From the IMG/VR virus record IMGVR_UViG_3300035670_000027: a stretch of 64,000 nt of DNA. One strand, written 5' to 3'. Shown here one piece after another: positions 12,600 to 48,797 of this stretch (positions are counted from its first letter, which is position 1; the number at the start of each line of letters is the position of its first letter). The position numbers and the translations under genes were made by a program. Source of the DNA: a virus. A model generated the notes under the pieces. The model was not told the origin of the DNA, did no database searches, and was given only the letters and a program-made list of their open reading frames with translations.

Positions 12600-13032
12600 G
12601 ATTTGCCTCCGTTGGTGTTTTTGCTTTTTTCTCTGCTTCATTCAATGGTGCACCAGATGCAAGTTCTAAACAACGCAATGCATTTGTTGTACCACGATTA
12701 ATTAGTTCTTGTGCTTTCTCTGGATTGTTTGCAACAAACGCACCAAAGTCTCTCTTATCAAATTTCTTTGTTAGATTCGCAACATCTTTCTTTTGCTTTT
12801 CATTCTCAACTTCTAATTCTTTGTTAATGGTTTGAATCTGTGCAACTTCTTTCTGCATATTCTCTATGACTTGATTCTGTTTCTCTGCGGCATCTTTCAA
12901 TGTTTTTGCATTCATTTCAGACACGGCTAAGTCTGCTTTCAAATTAGTGATATACCAAATACCACCAATCACGGTAAGCACAACTACCGAAATCAAAACC
13001 ATACGAATTATCGGAACAATTGCGAGTATCAT
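12550..13032 (-). CDS. i-spanin (Rz-like)
   Basis: N-terminal TM, long coiled coil, two C-terminal Cys. Confidence 0.75.
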   Translation of the reverse strand: MILAIVPIIRMVLISVVVLTVIGGIWYITNLKADLAVSEMNAKTLKDAAEKQNQVIENMQKEVAQIQTINKELEVENEKQKKDVANLTKKFDKRDFGAFVANNPEKAQELINRGTTNALRCLELASGAPLNEAEKKAKTPTEANRECPNLIDSDYTNPAN

Positions 13033-14087
13033 ACTTTTAACTTTGGATTACTTGTCATGAAATTCTTTTTTCTCATAACTGTTTTAGCAACTAGGTCCAA
13101 CTCTTCAGCATCACGATCCCACTTGAGTACAAATGGCATATTGATATCTGATGCCATGTCAGCAATAACTGCTTCAGCGTCAGGACCTAACTTTGAAATT
13201 CTTTTACCATGAGTGTTATATGTCTTGCGGAACAAGGCAGTCAACTCATCTGTTGTAATATCTTTTTGATTTCTTGCATCGTTAACACGGTCTAGAAAAT
13301 GTCGAGTAAATTCTACATCAATGCCAAGTGCTTTAAACAACTTATCAGCATAAACTTCGATGCCTTTGAGATCACCTTGAGTAATGCTCTCCATTACTTG
13401 AAATGATTCTGTGAACATTCCACTACGACCATAACGCAAGAAAATCATTGCGCCTGTTTTATCATCTTGAAGTATGATGGGTTTCTTTGGATACTTACGA
13501 CCATATTGACGAATCTCATTGCCAACTTCATCGTTACCAACATATGTTTCATACTTCAGATACTTCTTCTTACCTAGTCTTGCTTTGTTAAATCTTTCTG
13601 TGTCAACTACGAACACATCATTGTTTGCAAACTTTGCTCTGCGAACAAGTGCCATCTGTGCTTTCTTGCCAACTGGTGCATCATCACCTGTGCCAGCAAT
13701 TTGTCCACCACCAACTGCATTGACTGGTGCTTCTTCATTTAATTTCTTTTCAAACTTCTCATTTAGTCTATGTTTGCGAAACTCTTCTTCAAAGTTTTCT
13801 TCAGTCAAATTCTTTTCTTCTTTAATTAACCACAAAGCGGCGGCATAAGATGCAAGGCGTGTTTTACCACCTGGAATTGTACCAAGCAACTTCTTTAACT
13901 TGATCATGAGAACATCAAAGGTTGTCAGAGAATCTTTCTCTGCCATTGTTCTACGATCATCACCTTTCTTCAGAATGTTACCTTGTGAATCAATGACGCC
14001 AAGTTTATAGGCATCCCACTCAGTAAAAGGCTGAGTAAGTCTTCTTAAGATTCTGTAAACAACATATAAGTCTACTAAGTTTGCCAT
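13029..14087 (-). CDS. modular late protein, probable capsid-internal polyprotein
   Basis: three domains separated by LTEE/LNEE/FTES/VMES acidic linkers. Confidence 0.6.
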   Translation of the reverse strand: MANLVDLYVVYRILRRLTQPFTEWDAYKLGVIDSQGNILKKGDDRRTMAEKDSLTTFDVLMIKLKKLLGTIPGGKTRLASYAAALWLIKEEKNLTEENFEEEFRKHRLNEKFEKKLNEEAPVNAVGGGQIAGTGDDAPVGKKAQMALVRRAKFANNDVFVVDTERFNKARLGKKKYLKYETYVGNDEVGNEIRQYGRKYPKKPIILQDDKTGAMIFLRYGRSGMFTESFQVMESITQGDLKGIEVYADKLFKALGIDVEFTRHFLDRVNDARNQKDITTDELTALFRKTYNTHGKRISKLGPDAEAVIADMASDINMPFVLKWDRDAEELDLVAKTVMRKKNFMTSNPKLKV

Positions 14088-14434
14088 ACTCTTCTCTGAA
14101 TTTCTTCTAACAATTCTATGTCATGTTCAACATTGTTCTTTATGTAATTTAGAAAAATCAAAAAACTATTTAAGACTTTGTGATTTTCTTTCTCTACTTT
14201 AAATGTTAACATGTTGACCGTTGCTTCTACCCCAAAAACATTTGAGAGAAAGATGATATGATTCAGCACCAGTCTTTCTCTCAACTCTCTTTTCTCAGAG
14301 TACTTGTTCAGCAGTCGCTTGATATACTTAATTTTATTTAAGTCTTCAAGAAACTCAAGTACTGATATGCAATTTGGATTTTGATAATTGTTGATTGCAT
14401 ATTCATCAAAATCATCTTCATTCTGTATTAGCAT
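14075..14434 (-). CDS. conserved T4-like hypothetical protein
   Basis: YQNPNC, KYIKRLL, ERLVLNHII motifs. Confidence 0.7.
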   Translation of the reverse strand: MLIQNEDDFDEYAINNYQNPNCISVLEFLEDLNKIKYIKRLLNKYSEKRELRERLVLNHIIFLSNVFGVEATVNMLTFKVEKENHKVLNSFLIFLNYIKNNVEHDIELLEEIQRRVWQT

Positions 14435-14439
14435 AATAA

Positions 14440-14859
14440 TTAGAATGCGCTAAGTGAAGCCCTCACAATGTTTGTTGAGTTCGCCGCAATGTAGATGTAG
14501 TTATCATCCCATGCAATTGTACCAACTGCCCAACCAACTGCGGTATTGTTACCACTTGCTGGTGTTTGTTTTGTGCGAATACGAATCTCATCATTGTTGA
14601 AATCTGCAAGACCGACAACCTCAAAGCGAGTGTTTGGTGTAACCTTAACAACATCACCACCAATCGTTGCAGTACCAGATGTGGTATTTGCGCTAATATC
14701 GATTGTGCTGAAAACTGTTTGAGATGTTTCACCAAAGATATCACCGAGTTCAACTTTCTTTGAAACTGGTGATCCTGATGGATCGTCAATAATCAAAAGA
14801 AGATCAGTATTTGCTGGTGCAGTCAATGCGGTCAACTGCGTTACTTTTTTATCTGCCAT
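14440..14859 (-). CDS. putative virion structural/fibre protein
   Basis: MADKKVTQLTAL start; GTIAWDDNYIY beta-rich C-terminus. Confidence 0.6.
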   Translation of the reverse strand: MADKKVTQLTALTAPANTDLLLIIDDPSGSPVSKKVELGDIFGETSQTVFSTIDISANTTSGTATIGGDVVKVTPNTRFEVVGLADFNNDEIRIRTKQTPASGNNTAVGWAVGTIAWDDNYIYIAANSTNIVRASLSAF

Positions 14860-14881
14860 TTAATTCTCCTAATTTTATAAA

Positions 14882-14899
14882 CCCCCTCCGAAGAGGGGG
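14882..14899 (-). terminator. C(UUCG)G hairpin, weak terminator or stabiliser
   Basis: CCCCCTC-TTCG-GAGGGGG followed by TTT. Confidence 0.6.
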
Positions 14900-14933
14900 A
14901 ATGCTACTCCTGGGACTCAGGCCAAAGTGTTAC

Positions 14934-15680
14934 TTAAACAACTTCTGTAAGTGTTGCGTTAGCGGAAACTGTATTTGCAGTTACACCAGCCGCAGACAAC
15001 TGAACACGATAGATGTATCCATCAAGTCCTGTGTTATCAGAAATTGTAAGTGTCGCATTACTTGTGTTAGAGTACACACCAGTATTAGTTAGATTCACAA
15101 AGCCAGCGCCTTGATCTTCTTGCCAACGATAGTTAATTGTAGTACCTGCTGGTAGTGTGCTTGCAACAACTGAGAACGAAACTGCATCACCAGTATTTGC
15201 TGATGAGTTTTGTGGCTGAGTATTGATTGTAATAACTGTGTCTGGATAGACAACATCTTCAGCGTCAGCAGAAATGCTAGACAATGCAACCAATACTTCA
15301 CGCTTGTCACGGGTGCGACCATGAACATCTGTGTAAGTATTGCGTAGAACCCAACCTGCATCTCTTGTGGTTGCTTCTGCTTCAGTTGTATCAACACCGA
15401 AAGTCTTGCGACCATCAGCAGGTGTTAAATACTTTGGTGTGTCTTGACCAGTAATGGTACCACCAGAAACATTAGAGCCAGAGAATGCTGGACTAATTGT
15501 TAGGTAAGTATCATTAGCGATTGCGACAACCTTGTATTTGCTATCTGAAATTGTAATCATGTCGCCAATGTTTAAATTAGCGGTAAATGAGGTACTTGTT
15601 CCGACAACAATTGTTTCAGTATTGTTAACATCTACAGTACCGGCGATTGAGAATGAATCTCTTTTTCCCCATAGTGCCAT
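14934..15680 (-). CDS. virion structural protein with Ig-like C-terminal domain (Hoc-like decoration candidate)
   Basis: MALWG start; ITINTQP...YRWQ...LTIS...DGYIYRV Ig I-set pattern; late promoter upstream. Confidence 0.7.
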   Translation of the reverse strand: MALWGKRDSFSIAGTVDVNNTETIVVGTSTSFTANLNIGDMITISDSKYKVVAIANDTYLTISPAFSGSNVSGGTITGQDTPKYLTPADGRKTFGVDTTEAEATTRDAGWVLRNTYTDVHGRTRDKREVLVALSSISADAEDVVYPDTVITINTQPQNSSANTGDAVSFSVVASTLPAGTTINYRWQEDQGAGFVNLTNTGVYSNTSNATLTISDNTGLDGYIYRVQLSAAGVTANTVSANATLTEVV

Positions 15681-15692
15681 TGTTTTTCTCCT

Positions 15693-16184
15693 TTAGTATC
15701 CTAATCTTCGTAGTTGAGATATGGTTTTCATAGTATTTATATGACGAATACCTATACCACCCTTTGCAACCCATTCATTTATGTTTTTAATGTGGTCATC
15801 GATAAGTAAATTTGGTTTGCCATCTTTTGTCATAGCATAATTCTGCTTTTGTTCACGAGGAACAAGGTGTGTTTCTTTCACACGACCCAAATGCTTACGA
15901 ATCCACTCTATTTTTTCTGGTCTACAAGTTGGCATTCTTTTAGAAGGCGTAGAAAGAATGATTGGATTGTAACCACGAATAAACTTCCATAATGCCATGC
16001 CATCTGGCATAGGGTCTAGGTTTGCCCAAAACTTGGGTACCCGTTTTAGTGCTTCCCATTTCGCTTCCTTGTCTTCGTCTGGGAAATCACGCAAGCCTTG
16101 CATACGCAATGCTTCATTGGCGCCGCCTAAAAAATTGACTAGCACCTGGTCCATATCGCAATAAATTTGTGGTAACTGTTCCAT
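15693..16184 (-). CDS. HAD-family 5'(3')-nucleotidase-like phosphatase
   Basis: YCDMDQVL (DxD) and LLIDD motifs. Confidence 0.8.
   Translation of the reverse strand: MEQLPQIYCDMDQVLVNFLGGANEALRMQGLRDFPDEDKEAKWEALKRVPKFWANLDPMPDGMALWKFIRGYNPIILSTPSKRMPTCRPEKIEWIRKHLGRVKETHLVPREQKQNYAMTKDGKPNLLIDDHIKNINEWVAKGGIGIRHINTMKTISQLRRLGY
15734..15741 (-). promoter_or_regulatory. T4-type late promoter TATAAATA
   Basis: exact octamer about 55 nt upstream of the structural gene start at 15680. Confidence 0.7.
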
Positions 16185-18014
16185 TTAATTCTTTTCATCG
16201 ACCTCTGGATCAATCGTAATAGGTTCTTTTTTATTGCTTATCTTTTCGCCGCTTTTAACTGGCTTTTCTTTACCAGTCGCTTCTTTTTTCATTTCTTTCT
16301 TTTCAGCCATAATTTTTTTAACGACATTTGCTCCAGTAGACTTCATCTTACCTGGAATCATTACGCCTTCTTCTTTTGGCTTCTTGCCTGCTTTCTTCAT
16401 AGAGATTGCAATGGCGGCTTGTTGTGCAGGTGATGATGCTTCTTCAACTTCTTCTTTCATTTTCTTTTCGTCTGGGCTCTTACCAAAAGTCTTATGCACA
16501 AGTTTGTCTAACTTTGTGTGAAACTCAGTTTCTTTTTTCTTGCTTGCGCCTTCGTCTTTTGCTTCTTCTAAAGCGGCTTTGGCATCATCCATAGACTTGT
16601 AGTACTTTGTTTTTTTGCCGTCTTTGTATAGTGCAAACTTTTCATCGCCATACTTTTCAATATGATCGTTACCTTTTTTCCACACTACAGGACCACCAGA
16701 TTCTTCAAGTGCCTCTTCTTCGTTCATCTTTCTCACTACACGATTCTGTGCAAGACCAGAAACAAATTTGATTTTTGCACCTGCCAATTGCTGAAGTGTT
16801 TTGATATCAAGTTTGTCAAGCATTGCAGTAAGTTTCTTGTAATTGTCACTTGCTGGATCAATCTTGCCAATCTTCTCATATTCTTGACGCAACTTTGCAA
16901 CTTGTGCAGAAGACATGCCTTCTTCAAGTTCTTCTTTTTTGATTGGCTTCTTTTGTTGTTGCATTGCTCTTCTTTGCGCCGCAAGTTTTTCTAAACCAGG
17001 ATTAACATATTTTTCTTCAACATCTTCTTCTTTGATTGACTTCTTTTGTTGTTGCTTTTTCATTGCCATCTTTGCTAGATGTTTTGCAATAGAAGGACCA
17101 ACGCCACGCTTGCCAGGAACAACACCAGGATTCTTCTTTGGTTTGTCTGGTGTGAATGGTAAGTCTCTTTCTTCATCGAGGTCTTCTTTGTACATGTTGA
17201 GTTCGTAACGCTTGTTGTCAAGGTTAGTCACCTGTACTTGAATTGCTTTTTTACCAGTCTTATCTAGCAAACGATATGCATTTGCTTTACCAGATGATGG
17301 TTTCTTTGGACCCATCGCAACATTGCGGTCAATCTCTTGTGGATCAACTTCAATGTTATATTTCTTTTTTGCAAAATCATATGCGTGTGCCATCGCTGAA
17401 GAAAAGTCTTTGTGATAGAGTTCATAGCCTGTACCAGACTTACCTTCTTCAAGTTCTACATCTTCTTTTACTTTTTTATCTTTATATGATTTGTACAATG
17501 TTTTTAATGCATCTTGCTTAAGTTTGTTAGTTTTAATTGGGTTCGCTTTTTTTCCTGTTGGCACACCCTCCGCACCACGACTTGAAGATGGTTGAGATTT
17601 GTCCATTTCATTGATTTCAACTTCTTCAGCCACACTACGAATCACCTCAGCAATTTTTGATGCGGTTGCTTCTGGATGACGCTTAACGGCTGATGCAAAT
17701 TCTTTGTCTACCATCTTCTTGGCAGACTGAGGATTGTTACCATACTTGATTAATAGTTTAGTAACATCCTCTTTGCTAACAGGCTTTTTTGCTTCGTCAA
17801 GATTAGCCTCCTCATTCTTTGCTTGATGCATTGAATCAAGTGTATTGAAGAATGCTTTCTTTTCGTCTGGCGACAACTGGCTCAATGAAGTAATGCCTTT
17901 CTTTTTCATCAAGGCTTTTACTTTCATCTGATATTCAGTTTCTTCAGTTTGAATCTTCTTGACTGCATCAAGCAATGATTCTGGCAAACCAAATTTGTTT
18001 GACATGTGGTCCAT
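16185..18014 (-). CDS. Lys/Glu-rich modular protein, probable gp21-processed internal head polyprotein
   Basis: about ten repeated (K/N)E-E-x-(L/I/V)-x-E linkers separating short basic modules. Confidence 0.65.
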   Translation of the reverse strand: MDHMSNKFGLPESLLDAVKKIQTEETEYQMKVKALMKKKGITSLSQLSPDEKKAFFNTLDSMHQAKNEEANLDEAKKPVSKEDVTKLLIKYGNNPQSAKKMVDKEFASAVKRHPEATASKIAEVIRSVAEEVEINEMDKSQPSSSRGAEGVPTGKKANPIKTNKLKQDALKTLYKSYKDKKVKEDVELEEGKSGTGYELYHKDFSSAMAHAYDFAKKKYNIEVDPQEIDRNVAMGPKKPSSGKANAYRLLDKTGKKAIQVQVTNLDNKRYELNMYKEDLDEERDLPFTPDKPKKNPGVVPGKRGVGPSIAKHLAKMAMKKQQQKKSIKEEDVEEKYVNPGLEKLAAQRRAMQQQKKPIKKEELEEGMSSAQVAKLRQEYEKIGKIDPASDNYKKLTAMLDKLDIKTLQQLAGAKIKFVSGLAQNRVVRKMNEEEALEESGGPVVWKKGNDHIEKYGDEKFALYKDGKKTKYYKSMDDAKAALEEAKDEGASKKKETEFHTKLDKLVHKTFGKSPDEKKMKEEVEEASSPAQQAAIAISMKKAGKKPKEEGVMIPGKMKSTGANVVKKIMAEKKEMKKEATGKEKPVKSGEKISNKKEPITIDPEVDEKN

Positions 18015-18301
18015 TATAGTTCCTCTCTAATTTCTAAAACTAAGTTTCCGTTACCTTTTAAAATTCTATGATACTGCATAGCCTCGATAAAATAAATTTT
18101 TCCTTCTTCTAAATCTACTGGAAGTTCATTGTCCATTTGCAACTTCCAATCTTTAGATTCTACAACTTTGACATAGCGATCTCTACGATCACGATGCCAT
18201 ATTAATTCTTCGCCAACAACATTATCATCAAATGTTCTGTGAATAATACCTTCAGCCCAAAACTCTGAGTAAGGTTTACCAGAAGAAGTTTCCACCACCA
18301 C
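18014..18301 (-). CDS. small cupin-like protein
   Basis: LIWHRD...YHRILKG two-His cupin-like pattern. Confidence 0.55.
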   Translation of the reverse strand: MVVETSSGKPYSEFWAEGIIHRTFDDNVVGEELIWHRDRRDRYVKVVESKDWKLQMDNELPVDLEEGKIYFIEAMQYHRILKGNGNLVLEIREEL

Positions 18302-21239
18302 TTAATCCTAACTGCTTTGCATATCTTGGTGTATTGCAAGCCCAGTATGCGGCACTTGTTCTATCTTTCTGTGTTGAACATTGATGACGAGCCGCAAAAG
18401 ATTTTCTTGCTTCTGGATCATTCATCTTAACTGATAGACCAGTCGTATCGCCCCATGTGACTTTCTTAATGCCACCATCAGGTTTTCTTACATACACATA
18501 AAACTTTTTAGGACCACCACGCTTTGGTTGATTCAATGGTGGGTCTTTCTCTTCTTCTTCGTACATTGGGCAGTCAAGAGGAACATGATTGCCATCGTAT
18601 TCTGCAAACTCGCCAATGTCTGTTTCTTCAATGAGATGTTTATCTTCTGCGCTGAGTTCTAACTTGCCTTCGTTATACAATTTTCTTGCTTCACGAAAGA
18701 GTTCGAAATAGTTTTCTGAACCTACACGATAGACATTTTCGCACAATGGTACTTGATTGTCCATGTGCCAATCGATTGCTTCATGCACCTTTTCTCTAGA
18801 GAACATCTTCTTCAAGTCTTTAAACTTTTCAGGAAGTTGTACTGCTGGTTTTTCATCAGAAAATTCTGCAACATTTACTAGACTTTCTTGCCCTGGAGTA
18901 TCTGCCGCATACTTCTTACGCATTTGGTCAGTTCCCCACTCCAGGGCTTCGATAAAATTTGCGAATTCTTCGTTCTTTGAAACTTTCTTTGCAAGGTCAC
19001 TATCAGCACCGCCCCAAGTTCCTTTGCCTTTTGTGATGAATGAGTTCACTCTAGCAAACGCCCATTGTTGTGGTGTTGTACCTGGACGATGACCACCTTG
19101 CCATGCCGCCATACCACGGTCATAGACTTTCTTTAGAATGCCGTAAGGTATGCCAGACTTCTCTGCTTTCTTTTTGAGTCCATCGATCTCTTCGAAAAGA
19201 TCAGCAAATTCTTTAATTTCTTCTTCAGTCAATTCTTCTTGTGGAATCTCTGAGATTGCTTCGTAGATATCCTCATCATCGATTTCAAATTCATCTTCGC
19301 CTTCTTCTTCATCGTCTTCCATATCTTCATCATCGTAATCGTACATACCTTCAAACTCAAGATAGTCTTTTACGCTTTCGATATAGTCTGTTGCTTTTGT
19401 AATCTTAGAGAGAACCCATGCTTCTGGTTCTTCATCCATCATGTCAAGCAACTCTAGAAGTTCTTCAGCATCTTGCATGAGATTAGCAACTTCAATCTGT
19501 GCCATCTCAAGCCCATCAATTTTATCGTAATCATCGTACTCGCCTTTTTCAACCATGTTGGCAAGTTTCTTTGTGTCTACGCCAGGATAACTTCTGGCAA
19601 CTTGTGATGCATAATAGAGTTTATCTTTACTACCATCTTTCTTTCTTGCCAATACACCTTGCAATGCATCTTTGGCTAAACTATATGACTTCGCATGTGT
19701 GATTGGGCTGAGTGCTTTGCGAATGCCAAACATGTCTTCAAAGACTTCGTTGACTTCTTCTTTTTGCAATTGTGTTCTTGTCAAACGGAACAACTGATCG
19801 GATGATGTGACCATATCAAGCAAAGTAGTAAGAAGATTCTGTGTCGCAGTTCTTTCTGTAGGATTCAATACTTCGCCATTGTCCATCTTTGTAATTGAAC
19901 GCTTGATGATTGCTAGAAGTTTTTTGTCAGCAAGACCCATGCGAACCAATTGCTCTAACTTGTTGACTTGTTTCTTGTCTAACTCTTCGCCATACATCTG
20001 CTTAAATTTCTTTGTATGCTTTGACTGTGGCATGCCTTTTTCTCTTGCCTCTTTGTCGCCTGGTGCGTCTGCGTATGCTGATTGATCAGAATCAGACTTT
20101 GGTCCCATACGCTTGAAGTGTGCATCTCTACGCTCTTTAGTATCTTTGTCTAAACCTTTATAATACTTTGAAGGTTGTGTACCTGGTTTACCAGACACAT
20201 CTTTGTCTTGTGGCAGTTTACCTTCTAAGAAATTTTCAAACGCTTCATTCTTTGCTTGTGTTTGGCGCTTCTTTCTTTCAATCTCTGCTTTGCGTACTCT
20301 TGGTAGCAAGCGCATTGAAATCTTTGCGATTGCGCCTTTCATCTTTTCAACTTTTTTATCAACTGCAATCTTTTGTCCAACTGAAAGAGACTTGTATGCT
20401 TTGCCGCCACCAAAACGCTTTTTCAAAAACTTAAGTGCGGCTCTTCTTGCTCTAGTTTTTAGTTTGCCTTGTGTAGCAAAACGGCGAGAGGCGAGTTCTC
20501 TAGTTCTCTTTAGTTTTGCTTTCATTCTTCTCAGCATCATACCTCTTTTTCTACGCTGAGCCATTGATAAGGCTTCGGTAGTATTCTCTTCCTTTTCTTC
20601 AGGAACGCAATTTGGTACCATACGATTACCCTTCTTTTTTAGTCCTTGTTGTTTGTAACCAACCCAACATGCTTCGTCTATACTTTCTGTTAATCTCATT
20701 CCTTTTTTAACTGCATCAAACATTTGCTTTGCTTGCATATCGTTGAGTGCAGATGGAACACCTTCTTTAAACTTTTTGAAATCGTTATCTCTTACAAAAC
20801 CACGCATCTTAGAAGCGGACATACCAGATACACCTTCGGCATCAGGATCACGCTCACCTGCGCTAATGACTTCTATTGAATTGAAGGTAAAGTCTTTACC
20901 ATTGTATCGATTCAATAGAGTTTTAAATTCTTGTACACGATCACTTCCGACAACAACTGTTACATCGGTAAACTTTTCTCTTTGAAGTTCTTGCATGACT
21001 TCAATGATTGTTCTTGCTCTTGACTTGACAACATCAAGCATTTTACCAAAAGCAAGTTTCGCAAACTTCAGTTTGTCATCGTATGAAAGTGGATCTTTTT
21101 TGGGATTAGTCGTGTGGGAAAGATACAGTCTAGCGACTGCGCCACGAGATTTTGCCGCTTTGGCTATATTTTGTGCAACCAGTTCATGACCGGTTGTTGA
21201 TGGATTCATTCTACCGAATCCGAGTGTAACTTTCTTCAT
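18276..21239 (-). CDS. HIGH-family (NMNAT/cytidyltransferase-like) nucleotidyltransferase fused to multiple small modules
   Basis: FGRMNPSTTGH (TxGH), VVGSDR, MSASKMR; about 800 aa of modules separated by acidic linkers. Confidence 0.75.
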   Translation of the reverse strand: MKKVTLGFGRMNPSTTGHELVAQNIAKAAKSRGAVARLYLSHTTNPKKDPLSYDDKLKFAKLAFGKMLDVVKSRARTIIEVMQELQREKFTDVTVVVGSDRVQEFKTLLNRYNGKDFTFNSIEVISAGERDPDAEGVSGMSASKMRGFVRDNDFKKFKEGVPSALNDMQAKQMFDAVKKGMRLTESIDEACWVGYKQQGLKKKGNRMVPNCVPEEKEENTTEALSMAQRRKRGMMLRRMKAKLKRTRELASRRFATQGKLKTRARRAALKFLKKRFGGGKAYKSLSVGQKIAVDKKVEKMKGAIAKISMRLLPRVRKAEIERKKRQTQAKNEAFENFLEGKLPQDKDVSGKPGTQPSKYYKGLDKDTKERRDAHFKRMGPKSDSDQSAYADAPGDKEAREKGMPQSKHTKKFKQMYGEELDKKQVNKLEQLVRMGLADKKLLAIIKRSITKMDNGEVLNPTERTATQNLLTTLLDMVTSSDQLFRLTRTQLQKEEVNEVFEDMFGIRKALSPITHAKSYSLAKDALQGVLARKKDGSKDKLYYASQVARSYPGVDTKKLANMVEKGEYDDYDKIDGLEMAQIEVANLMQDAEELLELLDMMDEEPEAWVLSKITKATDYIESVKDYLEFEGMYDYDDEDMEDDEEEGEDEFEIDDEDIYEAISEIPQEELTEEEIKEFADLFEEIDGLKKKAEKSGIPYGILKKVYDRGMAAWQGGHRPGTTPQQWAFARVNSFITKGKGTWGGADSDLAKKVSKNEEFANFIEALEWGTDQMRKKYAADTPGQESLVNVAEFSDEKPAVQLPEKFKDLKKMFSREKVHEAIDWHMDNQVPLCENVYRVGSENYFELFREARKLYNEGKLELSAEDKHLIEETDIGEFAEYDGNHVPLDCPMYEEEEKDPPLNQPKRGGPKKFYVYVRKPDGGIKKVTWGDTTGLSVKMNDPEARKSFAARHQCSTQKDRTSAAYWACNTPRYAKQLGLSGGGNFFW

Positions 21240-21297
21240 GGAGTTTTCCTTAGACTTATCCTGACAGGTTTGGCATACCCTAACTGTCCATACTTCT

Positions 21298-21304
21298 TAT
21301 TTAG
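21298..21304 (-). promoter_or_regulatory. variant late promoter CTAAATA
   Basis: about 60 nt upstream of ATG 21239. Confidence 0.5.
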
Positions 21305-21309
21305 TAATT

Positions 21310-22311
21310 TTAAACGCCACCTCGCTCATTTGCCGCAATTTTAATGACATTTCCTGTCATTCTACTCTTGTATGCGGCTAACGCTCTAGTTCCTGGATAA
21401 CCAGGGATTGATTTTCTTGTTGAATCGTTACGAATTAGAAACCATACTTTCTTACTGTCTGGCACTTCGCTGAGTTTTGTAATCACGCTTGAAACGCTGA
21501 TTGTCAGAGTATTGTTCTCACCAGTATATTTGAAGTCATCACCTTCGAATGTTCGTGTGATAACTGAACCTTTGTTTGGCAGAATATCGCTACCAAAGAT
21601 TACGCTCTTTGATTCTTCTACTGTTGCTTCAATACCAATGTTTGGTGTAATCTTAATAACGCCACCAGCAAGACTTTCTACTTTTACTTTATTCTCTTTA
21701 ACTGCTTTGTCTAAAAAGTTCTTTGCATTCTCTCTCCAGAAACTATCAGCAGATTCCCAATACTCAGCATTGTCTTTCTTCAATGAGACTGGTATCACTT
21801 TACCTTTTGAATCTGTAATGGTCAAGTCTGCTTTCTTTCTGCCTGCGGTGTCTTCACCAGTTCTCTTTGCAATCTTTGCTTCTTTGATGAGGTGTTTGTG
21901 CTTACCATCTGTAAACAATACATCACACACACCATACTTTTGAATCACAAAGTTAATTGCTTGCACTAAGTTTGTTTCGTTTGCAACACCAGCAGAGGCA
22001 GTACCTTGTAGTGAAAGAGGCTTAACTGCAATTCTGAAATTAGCAACATCAATGTGACCAAGAGAACCACCGAATGAACGATTTGGATTTCTCTTACCAC
22101 CAAGTTGATTCATTAGATTCGCCATCACGGTATCACGCTTTTCATTTGTCAAAACAAAGAGTGATCTTGCATCTTTTTTCTTCAAGTCTTTATAGCCGAT
22201 AGAAGCCATGTACTTCATCAACGCATCTAATGTTGTAAATCGTGCCATATTACCATCCTCTTCTTCGTTTTTCTTTTCGGTAATAAATGATCTGAATCTC
22301 ATTATTGCCAT
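21310..22311 (-). CDS. PD-(D/E)XK nuclease-like protein with capsid-targeting-like N-terminus
   Basis: ANE...KADL...VSLKK pattern; MRFRSFITE N-terminus. Confidence 0.55.
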   Translation of the reverse strand: MAIMRFRSFITEKKNEEEDGNMARFTTLDALMKYMASIGYKDLKKKDARSLFVLTNEKRDTVMANLMNQLGGKRNPNRSFGGSLGHIDVANFRIAVKPLSLQGTASAGVANETNLVQAINFVIQKYGVCDVLFTDGKHKHLIKEAKIAKRTGEDTAGRKKADLTITDSKGKVIPVSLKKDNAEYWESADSFWRENAKNFLDKAVKENKVKVESLAGGVIKITPNIGIEATVEESKSVIFGSDILPNKGSVITRTFEGDDFKYTGENNTLTISVSSVITKLSEVPDSKKVWFLIRNDSTRKSIPGYPGTRALAAYKSRMTGNVIKIAANERGGV

Positions 22312-22358
22312 GGTTTTTGGTCTCTTTCTTTATAAATTGAGGTGTAGCCTTTCATCTG

Positions 22359-23588
22359 CTACCTCTGCCAGCCTTTAATAACATCCGGTGAGAAATTGGC
22401 GTAACTGAATCTCATTCTGTCAACCAACTTCACGGTGTTACCACTCAGATGGTCAATCGCAACATATCCCTCAACACCCGTAACTTCGTAACCTTTATTT
22501 GTCATCAAGAAAGTACCAATCGACTTCACTTGATCTAGTTTTGTAATCAGCACCAACTTCGCTTCAGCAAGCAAGTTCATCAAAGTAAAAATACTTTCAA
22601 GTTCAGATTTATTTCCAGCAGAAAAGAATTTCAAAACCTCATCACGCTTTGCGTATGTAGTCGCTTTTCCTTTCTCGCCTTTCTTTGATGCTTCTTTTTC
22701 ATAGTAGTCTGTAATGAATTGAATGAGTTCAGCAACATGTCGCTTGACATTTGTGATCTTCAATTGATTTCGTACTTTTGTATTGTTGAATGTCTTGATG
22801 CGATCTCTTAAATCATCATTGCCTGCAATAAAGTTCAATGTTTTTGCATCGATGCGATAGAATACTTTGCCTGCATCAGATAGAATCTTTGTGATTTTCT
22901 TTGTTTCGGCATCTGTCATTGTCGCTTTGCCTGAGAGGTCACGATAGTTCACATCGGTCGACCAAACTCTTGGTGTTTTTCGAATCATTGAAAGAATATC
23001 TTTACCAAAGACTGCTCTCATCTCTTCAAATGTATTGCCTTCGTATAGTGTGTGCCATACAACGCCAATTTTAGCGGCTTTTATCTCTTTTGCAAGTTCA
23101 CTTTGCGCTGGGATTGCATACACGATTGTATTTGGATGAAAGGTGATATACTCTTCACCATCAATTGTTGCAGTCTTCAAGTCTTTTTCTGTGAAAAGCA
23201 AGTCACCTTGAATCACGCCTTTGGTGATTCCTAGGTTTTTAAATTCTTCAAGAGATGCTTTCAGTTTATCTGCTAGGTCTCCTGAAGTGTCGGCATCGAT
23301 CTCGGATGGCGTCTTGTATATTTTGGGATTCTTATTGAATATTCCCTTCTTTGCGACAAAAAATTTCCCATCGCTTGGATCGATTCCAACGAAAACTGCG
23401 GGTGCACCATCCCACTTTACTGTAATGTCTACACGCTTGGTAGATTTACCAGCAAGCATATCACGCACCGCTCTAAGTGCATTGATTGAGTTACGGGCAC
23501 CAGTTACACCATGGTTGAGAACATCGTCCTCTGCATGCTCCATGTGTGTATTTTTCTGTTCTACTATAAATTGTTTGAAGTTCAACAT
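22359..23588 (-). CDS. conserved T4-like protein with ligase/nucleotidyltransferase-like motifs and capsid-targeting-like N-terminus
   Basis: TVKWDG (KxDG), QGDLLF, EGYV, VKLV; MLNFKQFIVE N-terminus. Confidence 0.65.
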   Translation of the reverse strand: MLNFKQFIVEQKNTHMEHAEDDVLNHGVTGARNSINALRAVRDMLAGKSTKRVDITVKWDGAPAVFVGIDPSDGKFFVAKKGIFNKNPKIYKTPSEIDADTSGDLADKLKASLEEFKNLGITKGVIQGDLLFTEKDLKTATIDGEEYITFHPNTIVYAIPAQSELAKEIKAAKIGVVWHTLYEGNTFEEMRAVFGKDILSMIRKTPRVWSTDVNYRDLSGKATMTDAETKKITKILSDAGKVFYRIDAKTLNFIAGNDDLRDRIKTFNNTKVRNQLKITNVKRHVAELIQFITDYYEKEASKKGEKGKATTYAKRDEVLKFFSAGNKSELESIFTLMNLLAEAKLVLITKLDQVKSIGTFLMTNKGYEVTGVEGYVAIDHLSGNTVKLVDRMRFSYANFSPDVIKGWQR

Positions 23589-23596
23589 TGTCCTAG

Positions 23597-23624
23597 ATAA
23601 AAAAAGTCCATCTTGCGATGGACT
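23597..23624 (-). terminator. intrinsic terminator overlapping a late promoter
   Basis: AGTCCATC-GCAA-GATGGACT followed by a T-tract. Confidence 0.75.
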
Positions 23625-23631
23625 ATTTATA
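23624..23631 (-). promoter_or_regulatory. T4-type late promoter TATAAATA
   Basis: exact octamer at the head of the late block. Confidence 0.8.
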
Positions 23632-28792: not shown

Positions 28793-29223
28793 TCGAAAAA
28801 CCTTTCTAAATTTGCTTTGGATTTATCCTGTCGTTCTCTGTATGTTTTCCAACTGTTATGCATTTCTCTATTCTTAAATGTTTCTTCAACATGACAATTC
28901 TTGCATAGTATTTTACACTTGCGAATCTCGTCTATCAACTCTCTCAGATACTTTCGATTCTTCTCCGCATCTTTAACTGATATTCTTCCTACAAGTTTTC
29001 CAATGCCAGAACCACAAGGACCATGCTTCGTGATCTCCACACTCTTTTGCGATGGATCAATGTGTGCAAAGTCTAACGCAAGTGCATACTTATTGAACCC
29101 ACACTTTTCACAACCTTTGTCTGTCTTGTATTTACTCAGCCAATGTTGTCTTCTTTTCAAAATAAATTTTCTTTTGCTCAACTGAAAAATCCCATCAATG
29201 AAGAGACTGGCTCTGGATTCCAA
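28789..29223 (-). CDS. HNH endonuclease-like protein (start uncertain)
   Basis: CEKC...LDFAHID...CKILCKNCH. Confidence 0.65.
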   Translation of the reverse strand: MESRASLFIDGIFQLSKRKFILKRRQHWLSKYKTDKGCEKCGFNKYALALDFAHIDPSQKSVEITKHGPCGSGIGKLVGRISVKDAEKNRKYLRELIDEIRKCKILCKNCHVEETFKNREMHNSWKTYRERQDKSKANLERFFE

Positions 29224-30269
29224 CCAAATGTATTCACAATAATCTTAAGCGGTTCAAGATATGCTTTCTCAAATTGTGTATCGTAGTCGATATACTTCTC
29301 TAAGCCAAACTCTTTTGGTAAAACATTCAATACAGAAAATACATTTTCTTGCAATGGGTTTGGCAACTTCATGTAACAAAACTTGATCTTGTCGCCATCA
29401 CGAATTGCTTGGTATTTCTTGTCTAACTTCTTTTGCCTTAGCATGTGATTGTAAAGCAAACTGCCACGAACATGAATAGGTGTACCTTTTGGATACAGAC
29501 TACTTTCGTTCTTGTTATCATATTTAGTCAGTTCAGAAACGCCTCTTGGAAACGCAACATCTTCAAATGGCAGAGATTTAAACTCTTCTTTGAATTTCGC
29601 ATTGAATGCTTGAAACTCAGATTCATCACCACGCATGATGATCACCAACGCTTCTTTAATTTTTTCACGGCATGACATTGGTGTGGAAGACTTGACTGCT
29701 TCGATACCCATCATCTTGAGTTTTGGTTCTGAATAACGAACACCTTCAGAGTCCCAGACATTAAGAATGTATCTCTTCTTGGCAGTCCAGATGCCTTTGT
29801 CTGCAATGACTTCTCGTTTCATCTGCATCTTTTGATCAAAGGCATTCATGTAGTATGCAAGTTCTTCATATGCCTTGTCGATGAATGGTTCAATTTTATC
29901 TGAACATGCTTTGTCTAATAGATTCACAATCTCTTCTCTGCTCTTGCCTTTGAATACTTTCTCAACAAGAGGACCAAGGTGTAGATAGATTGAATCTGTA
30001 TCTGATGCAATTACATAGTCAACATTCTCAGTCTTCAATAGTTTGTTCATAAACTGATTGAGTTTCTTTTCGATCCAACGAATAGACAATTGACCAGAGA
30101 GTGTGATTGCCTCTGCCTGACGAATATCAAAGAAGCGAAAGTATTCGTTGCCTAACGCACCATAGGCTGAGTTCAACTGAACCTTCTTGGCTAGTTGAAG
30201 ATTTTTGTAGCGTGAGATTTCGTTTTCTAATTGCTTCTTACGCTTAAGTAATTCTGTTTTTTCAGACAT
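29178..30269 (-). CDS. gp43: family B DNA polymerase, C-terminal subunit (gp43B)
   Basis: KVQLNSAYG, SDTDS, AKKRY motifs; C-terminal clamp-binding SLMGFF. Confidence 0.95.
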   Translation of the reverse strand: MSEKTELLKRKKQLENEISRYKNLQLAKKVQLNSAYGALGNEYFRFFDIRQAEAITLSGQLSIRWIEKKLNQFMNKLLKTENVDYVIASDTDSIYLHLGPLVEKVFKGKSREEIVNLLDKACSDKIEPFIDKAYEELAYYMNAFDQKMQMKREVIADKGIWTAKKRYILNVWDSEGVRYSEPKLKMMGIEAVKSSTPMSCREKIKEALVIIMRGDESEFQAFNAKFKEEFKSLPFEDVAFPRGVSELTKYDNKNESSLYPKGTPIHVRGSLLYNHMLRQKKLDKKYQAIRDGDKIKFCYMKLPNPLQENVFSVLNVLPKEFGLEKYIDYDTQFEKAYLEPLKIIVNTFGWNPEPVSSLMGFFS

Positions 30270-30771
30270 AATGGAAGTATGTACTCATAATGTATTTTGG
30301 TGTTTGTGTTGGCATCAAACCTTCGTGTGGATACATCCACATTGGAGGAAAGATTAAAACATTGCCTTGCTTTGCTTCATATGTAAATTCATCGTTTGGC
30401 ATATAAAACTTTGTGCCTGCTTCGTTGTCATTAAGATAAAATAAAAATGCTAGGTATCTAGTACATGATTGTACACTAATTGCATCGGCATGTAAAGGGA
30501 AGCAATGCTTATTTGGCTCATATCTTTTCACACGGAAAGATTCTATTCTTCTTTTTGTTGGTAAGAGTTTCTTTGGATCGTATCTGCTGGTATAATCTTC
30601 TGCAAGACCTTTTGCCACTTCAACTAAATCTTTGTGTTCACTTTTCCAATGTGTGATTTCAATCTGATCAAAAATGTCATATGAGGTATCTTTGTTTTCA
30701 TCGGCATCAAACTTCGCCATGATGTATTCACAAATTTCTTTGGGCAAAACATTTTGATACATTTGAATCAT
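30262..30771 (-). CDS. 2OG-Fe(II) oxygenase (prolyl-4-hydroxylase-like)
   Basis: HAD...YLND...GT...FPP..YPH...KY. Confidence 0.8.
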   Translation of the reverse strand: MIQMYQNVLPKEICEYIMAKFDADENKDTSYDIFDQIEITHWKSEHKDLVEVAKGLAEDYTSRYDPKKLLPTKRRIESFRVKRYEPNKHCFPLHADAISVQSCTRYLAFLFYLNDNEAGTKFYMPNDEFTYEAKQGNVLIFPPMWMYPHEGLMPTQTPKYIMSTYFHYV

Positions 30772-32210
30772 GCCAACTCCTTCAATTGTGCTTTGATGTT
30801 TTCTAGTTCTTTCTGTGCTTCAATCATCTTCTTTTTATATAGAACACGGTCATCATACATTTTCTGCATCATCTCAGGAAGAAAACCTTGAACATCTTTT
30901 TTGAAATAGTGACCATTGGCTGCCATACAATAATTTCGATCTGGCTCATACGCACCTTCTAGAAGTTCATCGATGGTCGTTGTTGTGTGCTTACCACTAA
31001 TGAATGTGTCAGGCGAAACATTGTACTGCATAATCAAGTGCGGATAGAGAGAGTTCAAGTCAAACGATACAACCCATTCGTACTTGCCTGGTACAGGTTC
31101 TTTCACATAAGCGCCAGCATATTGTTCGTTCTTTGAAGTGTGCTTTTTCTGAGGAACAACAATGCTCTTCTTCCACAAATGATTGTGCGTGAGAGTATCC
31201 CACATGCGTACTTGCGTGAACACATCGGTCAGATTCACCTTTGCGTCATAGGCAAGTGCAAGCACCATGTCAATAAACTTCATCTTCTCATCTAGTTTAT
31301 CGACAAGTTCCACATCTTTGATGTTGTATTCAATAAATTTTTGATAGTCAAGTTTATACAGTTGGTGTAGCGTTTCATATTCAGAGTAATCGATTTTGTT
31401 TTCACCAAGTTCAATGTACGCAATGTGGTCAAGGCGAAACGATTCTTGCTGAGTGTATGTGAATTTTTTGTAGAGTTCTAGATAGTCTAGAATTGCGATG
31501 CCAACAAGATCAAATGCAGTCTGTTGACGATTGTGAATTGTTGTCGTGCGTTCACCAATCATGCGATATGGTGACAAACGATTTGCAACTTTGTCATCCA
31601 TCAAACGCTTGATGCGATTATAGAGATATGGTATGTCAAAGAATTGAATGTTCCAACCGGTCACAATGTCAGGCGACTTCTCTTCCCACATCTGAAGAAA
31701 CTTGTTGATCAAATCATTTTCATCACGGCACTTGAAGTATGTAACATCTTCACGATTGTTTCTGAAGTCACCACAACCAAACACATAGAATGCGCCAGCA
31801 ATCTTGAATGTGATTGCAGTAATTGGTTCGCTTGCTTTGTCTGGTTCTGGAAAGCCATTCTCAGAGCCAACCTCAATATCAATATTGGCGATGCGAATTA
31901 GTTCACGATCATAATGCACTTCATCTGGATACTGTTCATTGATATAAACATAGGCATAGTTTGTCGAACCATAGATGGGAAAGTTTTCTACTTGCTCATA
32001 CTTTTGAATGAAGTCACTAGCATCACGCATAGTACCCATCTCAATCGCAGAGACATATCTTCCGTCTAGTGTGCGAAACTCGGTTTCATCTTTTGCAGGA
32101 ACGAAAAGAGTAGGATTGTATTCTACTTTGCGAGAATATCTTCTACCGTTTTCGTAACCTCGTTCAAGGATGTAATTACCTTTTCTTGTGAAGTGCGTAT
32201 AAAATTTCAT
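30768..32210 (-). CDS. gp43: family B DNA polymerase, N-terminal subunit (gp43A: exonuclease plus motif A)
   Basis: DIEV, GWNIQFFD, YNIKD, FDLNSLYPH; ends in the fingers helix. Confidence 0.95.
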   Translation of the reverse strand: MKFYTHFTRKGNYILERGYENGRRYSRKVEYNPTLFVPAKDETEFRTLDGRYVSAIEMGTMRDASDFIQKYEQVENFPIYGSTNYAYVYINEQYPDEVHYDRELIRIANIDIEVGSENGFPEPDKASEPITAITFKIAGAFYVFGCGDFRNNREDVTYFKCRDENDLINKFLQMWEEKSPDIVTGWNIQFFDIPYLYNRIKRLMDDKVANRLSPYRMIGERTTTIHNRQQTAFDLVGIAILDYLELYKKFTYTQQESFRLDHIAYIELGENKIDYSEYETLHQLYKLDYQKFIEYNIKDVELVDKLDEKMKFIDMVLALAYDAKVNLTDVFTQVRMWDTLTHNHLWKKSIVVPQKKHTSKNEQYAGAYVKEPVPGKYEWVVSFDLNSLYPHLIMQYNVSPDTFISGKHTTTTIDELLEGAYEPDRNYCMAANGHYFKKDVQGFLPEMMQKMYDDRVLYKKKMIEAQKELENIKAQLKELA

Positions 32211-32607: not shown

Positions 32608-32724
32608 TTAATCCCATCTACCACGGCGGTGCTTAATGTAATAGTCCGCTTGTGCTTGACGGGCTTCCGCTACAGATTCTCCGAAGCCGACAAGAAAGTC
32701 CCAAATCTTACTTAGAATCTTCAT
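32608..32724 (-). CDS. small ORF, 38 aa (MKILSKIWDFLVGFGESVAEARQAQADYYIKHRRGRWD)
   Basis: GGAGG RBS; overlaps the hsp20 stop. Confidence 0.55.
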   Translation of the reverse strand: MKILSKIWDFLVGFGESVAEARQAQADYYIKHRRGRWD

Positions 32725-33241
32725 CTGTATCCTCCACAAGCAACTGAGGTTGTGGATTCTTAGAAGCAAACTCGGATACAGTAGAACCTTCTTCGCTAAC
32801 TTCGATTTTCTTTGGCTTCTTATGTTCTGGAATGATTTTCTCTAGACCGATCTTAAGCATACCGTTGACTAGAGCCGCACCTTTGATTTCGATTTGATCA
32901 TTCAAAGCGAATGTGCGAGTAAAGTTTCTTGCGGCAATACCTTGGAAGAGATAATCATATGGGGATGATGTGTCTTCTTTAGCGTTACCTTTCACAATCA
33001 ACTTGTCATCCACAAACTCAATTTCGATCTCTGATTTAGAGAAACCAGCAACCGCAAGTTCAATGACATAGCGAGTGTCATCAACTTTCTTGATGTTGTA
33101 TGGAGGATAGTTAGGAATGTGTTTTGTTAGATCATCATGCATCTTTGAGAGTTTGTTGAATTGATCATCAAAACCTACAAAGAATTTATCAAAGTCTTTG
33201 CCGAATTTGGCAAAAGGATATGGAAAGTCGAGATTGGACAT
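32708..33241 (-). CDS. hsp20: small heat-shock protein (IbpA-like)
   Basis: NYPPYNI, ELAVAGF, GIAARNFTRTF, NGML, IIPEHKKPKKI. Confidence 0.92.
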   Translation of the reverse strand: MSNLDFPYPFAKFGKDFDKFFVGFDDQFNKLSKMHDDLTKHIPNYPPYNIKKVDDTRYVIELAVAGFSKSEIEIEFVDDKLIVKGNAKEDTSSPYDYLFQGIAARNFTRTFALNDQIEIKGAALVNGMLKIGLEKIIPEHKKPKKIEVSEEGSTVSEFASKNPQPQLLVEDTDEDSK

Positions 33242-39781: not shown

Positions 39782-39813
39782 AAATTTCCTTTCATCATCA
39801 AGTCAATAAACAT

Positions 39814-39842
39814 AGTATACCAAAGAAGTGGTGGTATGTCAA
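39814..39842 (-). promoter_or_regulatory. sigma70-like early promoter
   Basis: TTGACA-17-TATACT with extended TG. Confidence 0.85.
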
Positions 39843-48288: not shown

Positions 48289-48797
48289 TTTTGTACTTTC
48301 TTAACTTTGCGTTGAAGAATCATTCTTTTTCTTTTTGCTCTTTGTGTTTCAAACTGAGATGCCTTTTGCGTAAAGACTTTGCCTTCCATGTGATCATACT
48401 CATGCAATGCAACCCTCGCAGTCAATCCAATAAATGTTTCTGTTACTGTTTCACCATTCTCATTTTGAAAACGAACACGGCATCGATCTGGTCGCTTTAC
48501 ACTCAAATAGAGTAATGGATAACTTAAGCATCCTTCTTTCGCTAGAATCTCATTGTCTGATACATCGACAATTCTTGGATTGAACAATGTCAATGGTGGT
48601 TCGCTACGCATCGTAAACACACGATATGGTACACCAACTTGATTTGCTGATAAGCCAAGACCATCATTCTTTAGCATGGTACTATATAGGCTTTCTGCAA
48701 GTTCTTTTGGATCGTACGGTGGGTTCTCAAAGTCAAACTCTTGGCATGGCTCAAGTAACATTAGAGAATCTTCAGGTATAAGTTTAAATTCTATCAT
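48285..48797 (-). CDS. def: peptide deformylase
   Basis: GLGLSANQ, EGCLS, HEYDH. Confidence 0.92.
   Translation of the reverse strand: MIEFKLIPEDSLMLLEPCQEFDFENPPYDPKELAESLYSTMLKNDGLGLSANQVGVPYRVFTMRSEPPLTLFNPRIVDVSDNEILAKEGCLSYPLLYLSVKRPDRCRVRFQNENGETVTETFIGLTARVALHEYDHMEGKVFTQKASQFETQRAKRKRMILQRKVKKVQK

Follow-up and report, generated by a model that had tools for sequence, protein, structure and literature searches.

Two enzyme-like proteins of a T4-like phage bear a leader resembling the T4 capsid-targeting sequence and are candidate capsid cargo

Genes and signals at the locus

This study concerns a 64,000-nt stretch of the IMG/VR virus record IMGVR_UViG_3300035670_000027 (hereafter the window, i.e., the whole stretch of DNA that was analysed) and, within it, a gene block at 13029-23631 for which a first-pass annotation had proposed a late-expressed payload of enzymes and peptides, packaged in the capsid and injected with the DNA. 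The window derives from a T4-like (Kyanoviridae-type) phage, which encodes gp20, gp21, gp22, gp23 and gp55 (PHROG matches) and whose minus strand carries all substantial open reading frames (ORFs). All the ORFs that had been named in the block are present on this strand, with correct coordinates, sizes and first residues, and two of them, a DUF6267 protein and a 333-aa protein, begin with a short leader that resembles the capsid-targeting sequence (CTS) of T4. The upstream part of the block contains the following features:

23624-23631, minus strand: T4-type late promoter TATAAATA, with the DUF6267 start codon 36 nt further downstream
23598-23624 (stem 23605-23624), minus strand: terminator-like hairpin AGTCCATC-GCAA-GATGGACT with a T run, overlapping the last base of the promoter
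22359-23588, minus strand: DUF6267 protein, 409 aa, with the leader MLNFKQFIVE at 23559-23588
21310-22311, minus strand: 333-aa protein (phrog_12709), starting MAIMRFRSFITE, or MRFRSFITE (22276-22302) from the second ATG
18276-21239, minus strand: 987-aa modular protein, without an N-terminal leader

The octamer TATAAATA occurs 12 times in the window against 2.85 copies expected, always on the minus (coding) strand, and it also precedes gp23 and gp22 (38-40 nt before) and the tail tube gene. Its copy excess, strand bias and position before gp23 and gp22 thus indicate that it acts here as a T4-type late promoter, and the late promoter that had been placed at 23624 indeed heads the minus-strand block. 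Among the related loci (80 related viral contigs were fetched for comparison), the octamer lies within 100 nt upstream of 23 of the 55 other leader-bearing ORFs and of 44 of the 110 polyprotein genes, and this was the case for none of the 53 helicase genes and none of the 37 UvsX genes. Upstream of the hairpin, a strong sigma-70-like promoter (TTGACA-17-TATAGT) is located at 24017-23989; early transcripts from it would stop at the hairpin, and late transcripts, which would start inside the stem, would escape it. With a late promoter directly upstream, gp55 encoded in the same genome and a terminator-like hairpin that would isolate the block from the early-type promoter, the leader-bearing block is predicted to be expressed late.

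Conservation of the leader in related phages

The leader census covered the 64-kb window and the related genomes. When the tight form of the motif is used, MLNFKQFIVE (409-aa protein) and MRFRSFITE (333-aa protein) are the only N-terminal leaders in 64 kb, and a looser scan adds a 167-aa protein starting MKTFKSFLGD. Megablast found no nucleotide-level relatives of the block among 50,697 phage records, so that relatives are visible at the protein level only; the nearest cultured ones are Phage C48C1, Stenotrophomonas phage DLP_6, Methylophilales phage Melnitz and Pelagibacter phage HTVC008M, followed in the protein-level ranking by hundreds of cyanomyoviruses. The gene order gp41, X, DUF6267, small ORFs and 'cytidyltransferase' is syntenic in all of these relatives.

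In the related loci, the strict leader was found at 125 of 2740 ORF N-termini versus 16 internal occurrences, and at the N-terminus of none of 66 helicase homologues. As an example, all 4 genome-wide leader matches of C48C1 lie inside the homologous block, with 0 control matches. The consensus of 95 distinct leaders gives F at position 4 (93%), Y or F at position 7 (92%), L or I at position 8 (93%) and E at position 10 (100%, by construction). In nearly all of the 80 loci, DUF6267 orthologues start with M-x-x-[FL]-x-x-[FY]-[IL]-x-E, then one residue, then KNTHMEH. The decapeptide is absent from the DUF6267 orthologues of the cyanophages P-HM2, S-PRM1 and S-SM1, the first two beginning directly at KNTHLEH and the third having an unrelated short N-terminus. 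Since the P-HM2 and S-PRM1 orthologues begin where the leader ends, the decapeptide appears as an add-on to a complete domain. In the family of the 333-aa protein, some members carry a leader (MLGFVEYITE, MKSFIEYLEE and MRYKSFAQFVE) and others start at MARF, which corresponds to window residue 22. In the AF2 models of both window proteins, the leader forms a disordered tail ahead of the folded domain.

Other leader bearers in the relatives comprise cytidyltransferases, a P-loop kinase, a HAD phosphatase and many family-less proteins encoded upstream of DUF6267. Ten leader-tagged proteins from this upstream slot were compared with Pfam: eight are family-less, one is a P-loop kinase and one a HAD phosphatase, and no common pathway emerged among them. 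The kinase (Zeta_toxin/AAA_33; L018:4171-5016) and the phosphatase (MQSFKQFITE..., Acid_phosphat_B; L082:5608-6213) are each encoded directly upstream of DUF6267. Note that enrichment of bare [LI]-x-E was also considered as a signal and rejected, its density of 0.9-1.6 per 100 aa being similar to that of other proteins and inflated by acidic linkers; sites were retained only where orthologues conserve them.

The leader is kept at the amino-acid level while the codons differ, and this bears on a reading in which the conserved N-terminus is unrelated to the capsid and represents a translation or stability signal, or the site of another factor, on ordinary late cytoplasmic enzymes. Short amphipathic N-termini can serve many roles, but we regard this reading as highly improbable: besides the conservation of residues rather than codons, the leader has the determinants of the genetically defined T4 CTS, a head-gene-cluster protein bears the same leader, and the motif picks out two T4 internal-protein genes together with non-structural proteins listed as virion-detected for S-CREM2 and S-SM1, as described in the following sections.

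Comparison with the capsid-targeting sequence of T4

The head genes of the window, together with the late sigma factor, are arranged as follows (the slash marks the maturation site):

62226-63911, minus strand: portal gp20 (PHROG match)
59148-59651, minus strand: 167-aa protein, MKTFKSFLGD...RLEE, encoded between the portal and prohead protease genes, at the gp67/gp68 location
58236-58988, minus strand: prohead protease gp21 (PHROG match)
57264-58181, minus strand: scaffold gp22 (PHROG match)
55861-57213, minus strand: major capsid protein gp23 (PHROG match), with the site SLLSE/A
52316-52879, minus strand: late sigma gp55 (PHROG match)

The head-maturation trio gp21, gp22 and gp23 matched phrog_207, phrog_237 and phrog_138 at 1e-74 to 1e-162. 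The gp23 maturation site reads ...SLLSE/AAPT in the window, in agreement with the LLSE/A site reported by the first-pass annotation, and ...FLTE/AEIG in T4.

Mutational work on the T4 CTS (MKTYQEFIAE) assigned residues 4 and 7 to targeting and residues 8 and 10 to processing, and Asp at position 10 blocks processing and keeps targeting (summarised in PMC9026906). Reading of the T4 genome confirmed MKTYQEFIAE on IPII and IPIII. MLNFKQFIVE has all four T4 determinants (F4, F7, I8 and E10), and MRFRSFITE has the same core and is one residue shorter. The back-translated pattern M-x-x-[FY]-x-x-[FY]-h-x-E gives three matches only in the T4 genome and none in the reversed control, and two of them encode the MKTYQEFIAE of the 193-aa and 100-aa internal proteins (IPII and IPIII). 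The third, at 19101-19130 (MKTFKEFIKE), is probably ipI.

As for the 167-aa protein, nearly all of the 120 listed homologues of its family start MKTFKSF[IL], followed by hydrophobic-x-Glu at a variable distance (residues 10-14), which agrees with the propeptides of 10-19 residues of T4 internal proteins. It is probably the internal or core protein of this lineage.

The leader-bearing proteins share with T4 internal proteins an N-terminal leader some 10 residues long (aromatic at positions 4 and 7, aliphatic at position 8, Glu at position 10), a genome that also encodes gp21, gp22 and gp23, a candidate cargo set that changes from one relative to the next and includes small basic proteins, and, as a prediction here, expression late in infection. 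They differ from them in belonging to a Kyanoviridae-like lineage and not to Tevenvirinae (leader consensus MK/L-x-F-K-x-[YF]-[LI]-x-E), in the candidate cargo, which includes enzyme-fold proteins of 37-46 kDa and perhaps the 987-aa multi-module protein, and in that loading and cleavage are predicted from sequence here. T4 Alt, an ADP-ribosyltransferase that is packaged in the capsid and injected, offers a second parallel: its N-terminal propeptide (MELITELFDE) is cleaved off, the head carries the enzyme, and it acts when infection begins, features that are predicted for the window proteins. Its fold differs from the ligase-like and restriction-endonuclease-like folds of the latter. Head-packaged accessory proteins delivered with the DNA, some of them large enzymes, also include P1 Dar and the inner-body proteins of the jumbo phages phiKZ and SPN3US, the latter processed by the prohead protease; their targeting signals and lineages differ from those of the window phage.

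Published virion proteomes

The S-CREM2 genome was scanned in six frames for starts followed by the leader, and the result was compared with the virion proteins given in Table 3 of PMC10665884. Of the eight sites that match the leader, five coincide with the start of a gene: ORF6 (SAM hydrolase, MKDFDSFLEE), ORF13 (78 aa, MKDLHSFLTE), ORF14 (kinase, MKRFDAFLTE), ORF136 (MQTFSMFFSE) and ORF154 (cytidylyltransferase, MKNFSSFLTE). All five appear in the purified-virion list, against a background of 52 of 221 ORFs (Fisher p = 6e-4; PMC10665884), and the neighbours absent from that list (gp1-5, 7-11, 16 and 18) have no leader. In S-SM1, the only real leader gene is SSM1_190 (MKKFSAFLNE, T4-GC190 cytidyltransferase), whose product is listed among the proteins detected in virions with 25 peptide counts (PMC3037559). 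The leaderless DUF6267 protein SSM1_189 (GC71), encoded next to it, is missing from the table of detected proteins of that paper (PMC3037559).

Both cytidylyltransferases are orthologous to the N-terminal domain of the 987-aa protein: SSM1_190 is 41% identical to residues 4-195 and S-CREM2 ORF154 is 31% identical to that domain. The S-SM1 and S-CREM2 copies bear the leader and are listed as virion-detected, whereas the window nucleotidyltransferase has no leader at its N-terminus and is joined to a far larger number of modules. Altogether, the proposal of the first-pass annotation that a T4-type capsid-targeting leader is present in the block is supported by the T4 determinant residues, by the add-on character of the decapeptide across relatives, by its association with late promoters and by the virion proteomes.

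The S-CREM2 authors stated that such enzymes "may be encapsulated" (PMC10665884). In the available portions of the two virion papers (PMC10665884 and PMC3037559), neither a mention of the leader nor a comparison of leader and proteome was found.

As a separate observation, within one S-CREM2 cluster (L095, 3837-13331) the non-structural proteins listed as virion-detected all have the leader or a variant of it. The SAM hydrolase, ORF13 and the kinase belong to this cluster, and the variants are MNFSEFNE of ORF15 and LRFASFMAE at residues 17-25 of a 'Cas9-like' 869-aa protein, both in the list of detected proteins.

Structure models of the two leader-bearing proteins

The DUF6267 protein matches Pfam DUF6267 at 3e-105, a family with more than 8000 database members. 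K58-W-D-G61 (across 32 sequences), E373-G374 and K387 are invariant in the family. The AF2 model (pLDDT 86) has residues 1-14 disordered and a helical insert at about 226-354. Its best VIA matches are Naegleria NgrRnl (5cot, Z 8.1 over 181 aa), Trl1 (6n0t, 7.3), T4 Rnl2 (2hvq, 7.2) and T4 Rnl1 (9do4, 7.0), followed by DNA ligases, and RNA ligases account for the top seven and for 9 of the 13 best matches. These Z values are moderate and the Foldseek list is led by DNA ligases at E of about 0.01, with no match at E <= 0.001; searches of the PDB by sequence and profile returned nothing meaningful, and no curated ligase family was matched (DUF6267 only in Pfam, nothing in NCBIfam). Note that the fold assignments of both leader-bearing proteins rest on VIA-align Z values of 6 to 8 and on consistent match lists. 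Given the ligase-led structure matches and the invariant KxDG, EG and K motifs, DUF6267 is, on the evidence of the model, an unrecognised branch of the lysine-nucleotidyltransferase superfamily with an RNA-ligase-like fold, and the first-pass description of a KxDG ligase-like protein is supported.

Compared with Rnl2/Rnl5-type ligases and the ligase domain of Trl1, the common points are the nucleotidyltransferase fold (Z 7.0-8.1, 170-199 residues aligned) and the KxDG lysine motif with EG and K motifs near the C-terminus. DUF6267 is set apart by about 130 helical residues inserted between the fold halves and by the lack, at the sequence level, of a match to any ligase family or PDB chain. No prior description of such a system was found in literature on DUF6267, on the CTS in cyanophages or metagenomes, or on packaged RNA ligases. 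In one related contig (L012:8674-12813), a single ORF of 1379 aa joins a leader-bearing DUF6267 (MNFKDFIVEQKNTH) to the modules that in the window 987-aa protein come after the nucleotidyltransferase.

The 333-aa protein consists of the leader, an acidic linker, a small alpha/beta domain (22-100) and an MspI/HinP1I/HhaI-like domain (100-312). D159, S173-x-K175 and E183 are invariant in its family, and in the model D159 lies before strand 160-164 and S173-x-K175 at the end of strand 169-175. VIA gave grey-zone scores for MspI (Z 6.6, 161 aa), HhaI (5.9) and HinP1I (5.9), and the language-model neighbours carry R-HinP1I and Endonuc-MspI domains, the Atlas leads scoring 0.89, again in the grey zone. 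Foldseek found no match of the model at E <= 0.001, and PDB sequence and profile searches gave nothing meaningful. With the monomeric type II restriction endonucleases MspI, HinP1I and HhaI, the model of residues 100-312 shows a grey-zone similarity in fold (Z 5.9-6.6 over 146-162 residues), and its catalytic-type D...x-K motif is placed on the strands where one would look for it; in contrast to them, the protein has S-x-K instead of N/Q-x-K and an extra N-terminal domain. No methyltransferase partner was found among about 40 annotated window ORFs or beside the homologue in L093. Thus, the PD-(D/E)XK-like nature assigned to this protein by the first-pass annotation is supported, with grey-zone scores, as an MspI/HinP1I/HhaI-like fold, and we describe the modelled protein as restriction-endonuclease-like and do not call it a restriction enzyme.

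The 987-aa protein

The 987-aa protein comprises a HIGH-motif nucleotidyltransferase (residues 1-185) and a very basic module of pI 11 (186-339), and its further modules include DUF5824 (685-764) and phrog_7595 (895-969). The nucleotidyltransferase matches phrog_3041 at 5e-78, and CTP_transf_like reaches 18.2 bits versus a cut-off of 21. It had been called NMNAT-like: the general HIGH-type nucleotidyltransferase class holds, but NadD (TIGR00482) scores 17.6 bits versus a cut-off of 112.45. An upstream alternative start or leader was considered and ruled out by reading the 70-nt spacer. Four conserved junctions, leader-like or of the hydrophobic-x-Glu type, lie within the protein:

20673-20699, minus strand: junction MRLTESIDE, residues 181-189
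residues 330-339, minus strand: junction NEAFENFLE
19188-19217, minus strand: junction IKEFADLFEE, residues 675-684
18948-18977, minus strand: junction KNEEFANFIE, residues 755-764

Among eight orthologues, hydrophobic-x-Glu is conserved at positions 185, 339 (NEAFENFLE/G), 501, 564, 684 (EFADLFEE/I), 764 (NEEFANFIE/A) and 871. The pattern [FY]xx[FY][ILV]x?E is found seven times in the window, four times within three proteins of the block (binomial p = 0.0014). The modules of the 987-aa protein exist in relatives as separate ORFs, each with its own leader, and small stand-alone ORFs that are homologous to parts of it likewise begin with the leader; at residues 181-189, the window reads MRLTESIDE/ACW where a free-standing relative reads MKTFKEYAE/ACW. 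Homologous proteins in relatives vary greatly in their modules, from 183 to 1622 aa. The separate leader-tagged genes of relatives and the conserved hydrophobic-x-Glu junctions together fit a polyprotein reading of this gene, in which the predicted pieces are a 21-kDa enzyme and fragments of 7-19 kDa, most of them basic, with several modules of pI 9.8 to 11.1. For its loading into the head and its cutting, presumably by gp21 at the conserved junctions, we see about even odds.

Proposed mechanism and significance

We propose that the decapeptide M-x-x-F-x-x-[FY]-[IL]-x-E would be this lineage's version of the T4 capsid-targeting sequence and that the DUF6267 and 333-aa proteins are capsid cargo, to which we assign a probability of about 0.7. 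By analogy, the proposed mechanism is that of T4 internal proteins and Alt. Both proteins would be produced late from the TATAAATA promoter, bound through the leader to the gp22 scaffolding core during prohead formation and freed of the leader by the gp21 protease, which would cut after Glu; the mature proteins would remain beside the DNA inside the head and accompany it into the next host. The 167-aa MKTFKSF protein beside gp21 would belong to the same class, as a classical internal or core protein, and the 987-aa protein would probably be loaded too and cut into the nucleotidyltransferase and small, mostly basic pieces that resemble T4 internal proteins. We infer loading, cleavage and ejection in this phage, as well as every downstream function, from sequence and comparison.

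Several observations weigh against this proposal. The residue after Glu10 in the window leaders is Q or K, compared with Ala in T4. The 987-aa protein and its closest orthologues (L007 and L015) start without a leader, and the junctions inside it (F-x-x-F-[IL]-E) lack one residue relative to the N-terminal leader. The proteome association involves small numbers (5 and 1 genes), virion mass spectrometry can catch contaminants, and the virion support comes from proxy genes of S-CREM2 and S-SM1, none of which is a leader-tagged DUF6267. In addition, the leaderless S-SM1 neighbours GC1453, GC1454 and GC1455 are also given as virion-detected (PMC3037559), and the leader is therefore not the sole route into the particle.

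The tagged proteins could also be loaded and work inside the head, as assembly core or DNA-condensing proteins, with the enzymes inactive or acting on the packaged genome. T4 IPIII affects head morphogenesis, the 167-aa protein occupies the gp67/gp68 core position, and the 987-aa protein contains several small modules that are very basic, all of which would fit such a role. However, catalytic-type residues are invariant in DUF6267 and in the nuclease-like protein, and the tagged set varies among phages, which is typical of host-directed cargo such as T4 IPI and Alt and unusual for assembly parts. We thus consider an in-head role unlikely and retain delivery to the host as the preferred reading.

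More tentatively, and with less confidence than we place in the cargo status of the two proteins, the tag may serve for a general pre-loading of enzymes, nuclease-like and RNA-ligase-like here and kinases, phosphatases, SAM hydrolase and nucleotidyltransferases in relatives, which could attack host nucleic acids or undo defence damage before phage gene expression. If so, thousands of uncultured T4-like phages from marine and fresh waters could have their injected proteome read from sequence by means of the leader. The T4 CTS has so far been treated mostly as a T-even feature and an engineering tool; what is new compared with T4 is the lineage, the enzyme-fold candidate cargo with a candidate polyprotein, and a tag that appears able to predict virion proteins in Kyanoviridae. 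Provided that the tag works across Kyanoviridae-like phages, which are very abundant on marine and freshwater bacteria, it would explain the 'non-structural' enzymes that recur in cyanophage virion proteomes and would offer a simple sequence rule for predicting injected proteins. The DUF6267 ligase-fold and MspI-like nuclease families would then be candidate first-minute effectors in phage-host conflict, and the long modular proteins of these phages are suggested to be polyproteins cut by the head protease.

Remaining genes of the block

Downstream of the 987-aa gene, the block continues with:

18014-18301, minus strand: 95-aa acidic protein, without leader and without PHROG match
16185-18014, minus strand: 609-aa modular basic protein, without leader
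15693-16184, minus strand: 5'(3')-deoxyribonucleotidase (HAD/NT5C), 163 aa, PF06941 26.2 bits versus a cut-off of 24.8
14934-15680, minus strand: Ig-like head protein, head-protein PHROG match, with its own late promoter
14075-14434, minus strand: DUF7207, conserved next to the Ig-like protein in cyanophages
13029-14087, minus strand: 352-aa protein; relatives carry its C-terminal module as a fusion with leader-bearing polyproteins

The 95-aa protein had been taken for a cupin, an assignment that does not hold (Cupin_2 13.2 bits versus a cut-off of 27.2, E = 0.07). The nucleotidase, in contrast, belongs above threshold to NT5C and so confirms the HAD phosphatase of the first-pass annotation as an enzyme but not as a payload member, since it lacks the leader: it matches phrog_2643 at 9e-27, has DMDQV (DxDxV) at residues 10-14 and starts at this catalytic motif. 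A late promoter inside its gene (15734-15741) serves the next gene, that of the Ig-like head protein. The region 13029-15680 also contains a 139-aa ORF on the minus strand, and none of the proteins of this region is leader-tagged. The Ig-like protein, the 139-aa ORF and DUF7207 look structural rather than cargo, and with the 352-aa protein they are probably structural or accessory; the nucleotidase, the 95-aa protein, the Ig-like protein and DUF7207 are read as ordinary late or structural genes. Modules of the 609-aa protein recur inside the nucleotidyltransferase polyproteins of relatives (e.g., residues 182-296 match internal parts of L043 and L059), and such module sharing would tie the 609-aa and 352-aa proteins only loosely to leader-bearing polyproteins. 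Both have conserved N-termini of their own, unlike the leader (x-KFGLPxSLLDAV and DL[FL]LVYQF[IL]KRLTTPF, respectively).

These genes bear on the broadest form of the payload idea, in which the whole 13029-23631 block would be one cooperating injected kit for nucleic-acid end repair or NAD+ rescue against host defences before phage transcription. In its favour, the genes adjoin one another in a single orientation downstream of one late promoter, each of the activities in question (ligase-like, nuclease-like, nucleotidyltransferase and nucleotidase) is plausible, and the variable slot beside DUF6267 in relatives can carry a leader-tagged P-loop kinase or HAD phosphatase. Nevertheless, we judge such a kit quite unlikely: the N-terminal leader is on only two block proteins, the nucleotidase begins at its catalytic DxDxV, NadD/NMNAT membership fails (17.6 bits against 112), a second late promoter (15734) opens a structural-looking sub-block, and the cyanophage DUF6267 without leader is not among the virion proteins tabulated for S-SM1. 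The partner beside DUF6267 also speaks against a fixed pathway, since it changes between phages and in most cases can be assigned to no family. Of the single 10.6-kb payload, the two leader-tagged proteins stand as candidate cargo, and the nucleotidase and the 95-aa, 609-aa, 352-aa and 987-aa proteins lack the N-terminal leader.

Other features of the window

Also identified by PHROG in the window are gp46/47, a split gp43, the clamp and the clamp loader, and by homology UvsX and the gp41 helicase. The gp43 gene is split into a 480-aa N-terminal part (30768-32210) and a 363-aa C-terminal part (29178-30269), and a 169-aa ORF between the two halves matches 2OG-Fe(II) oxygenase and DNA endonuclease PHROGs. 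A 784-aa ORF (59906-62260) with collagen-like and tail-fibre PHROG matches separates the portal gene from the head core genes and overlaps the end of the portal ORF by 35 nt. Auxiliary genes are found in the regions 687-1298, 32708-33241, 48285-48797 and 38603-42034, and the auxiliary set includes a ClpP-like ATP-dependent protease, Hsp20 (with TATAAATA at 33319) and a peptide deformylase. A CobS-like 'porphyrin biosynthesis' ATPase adjoins a 731-aa peptidase.

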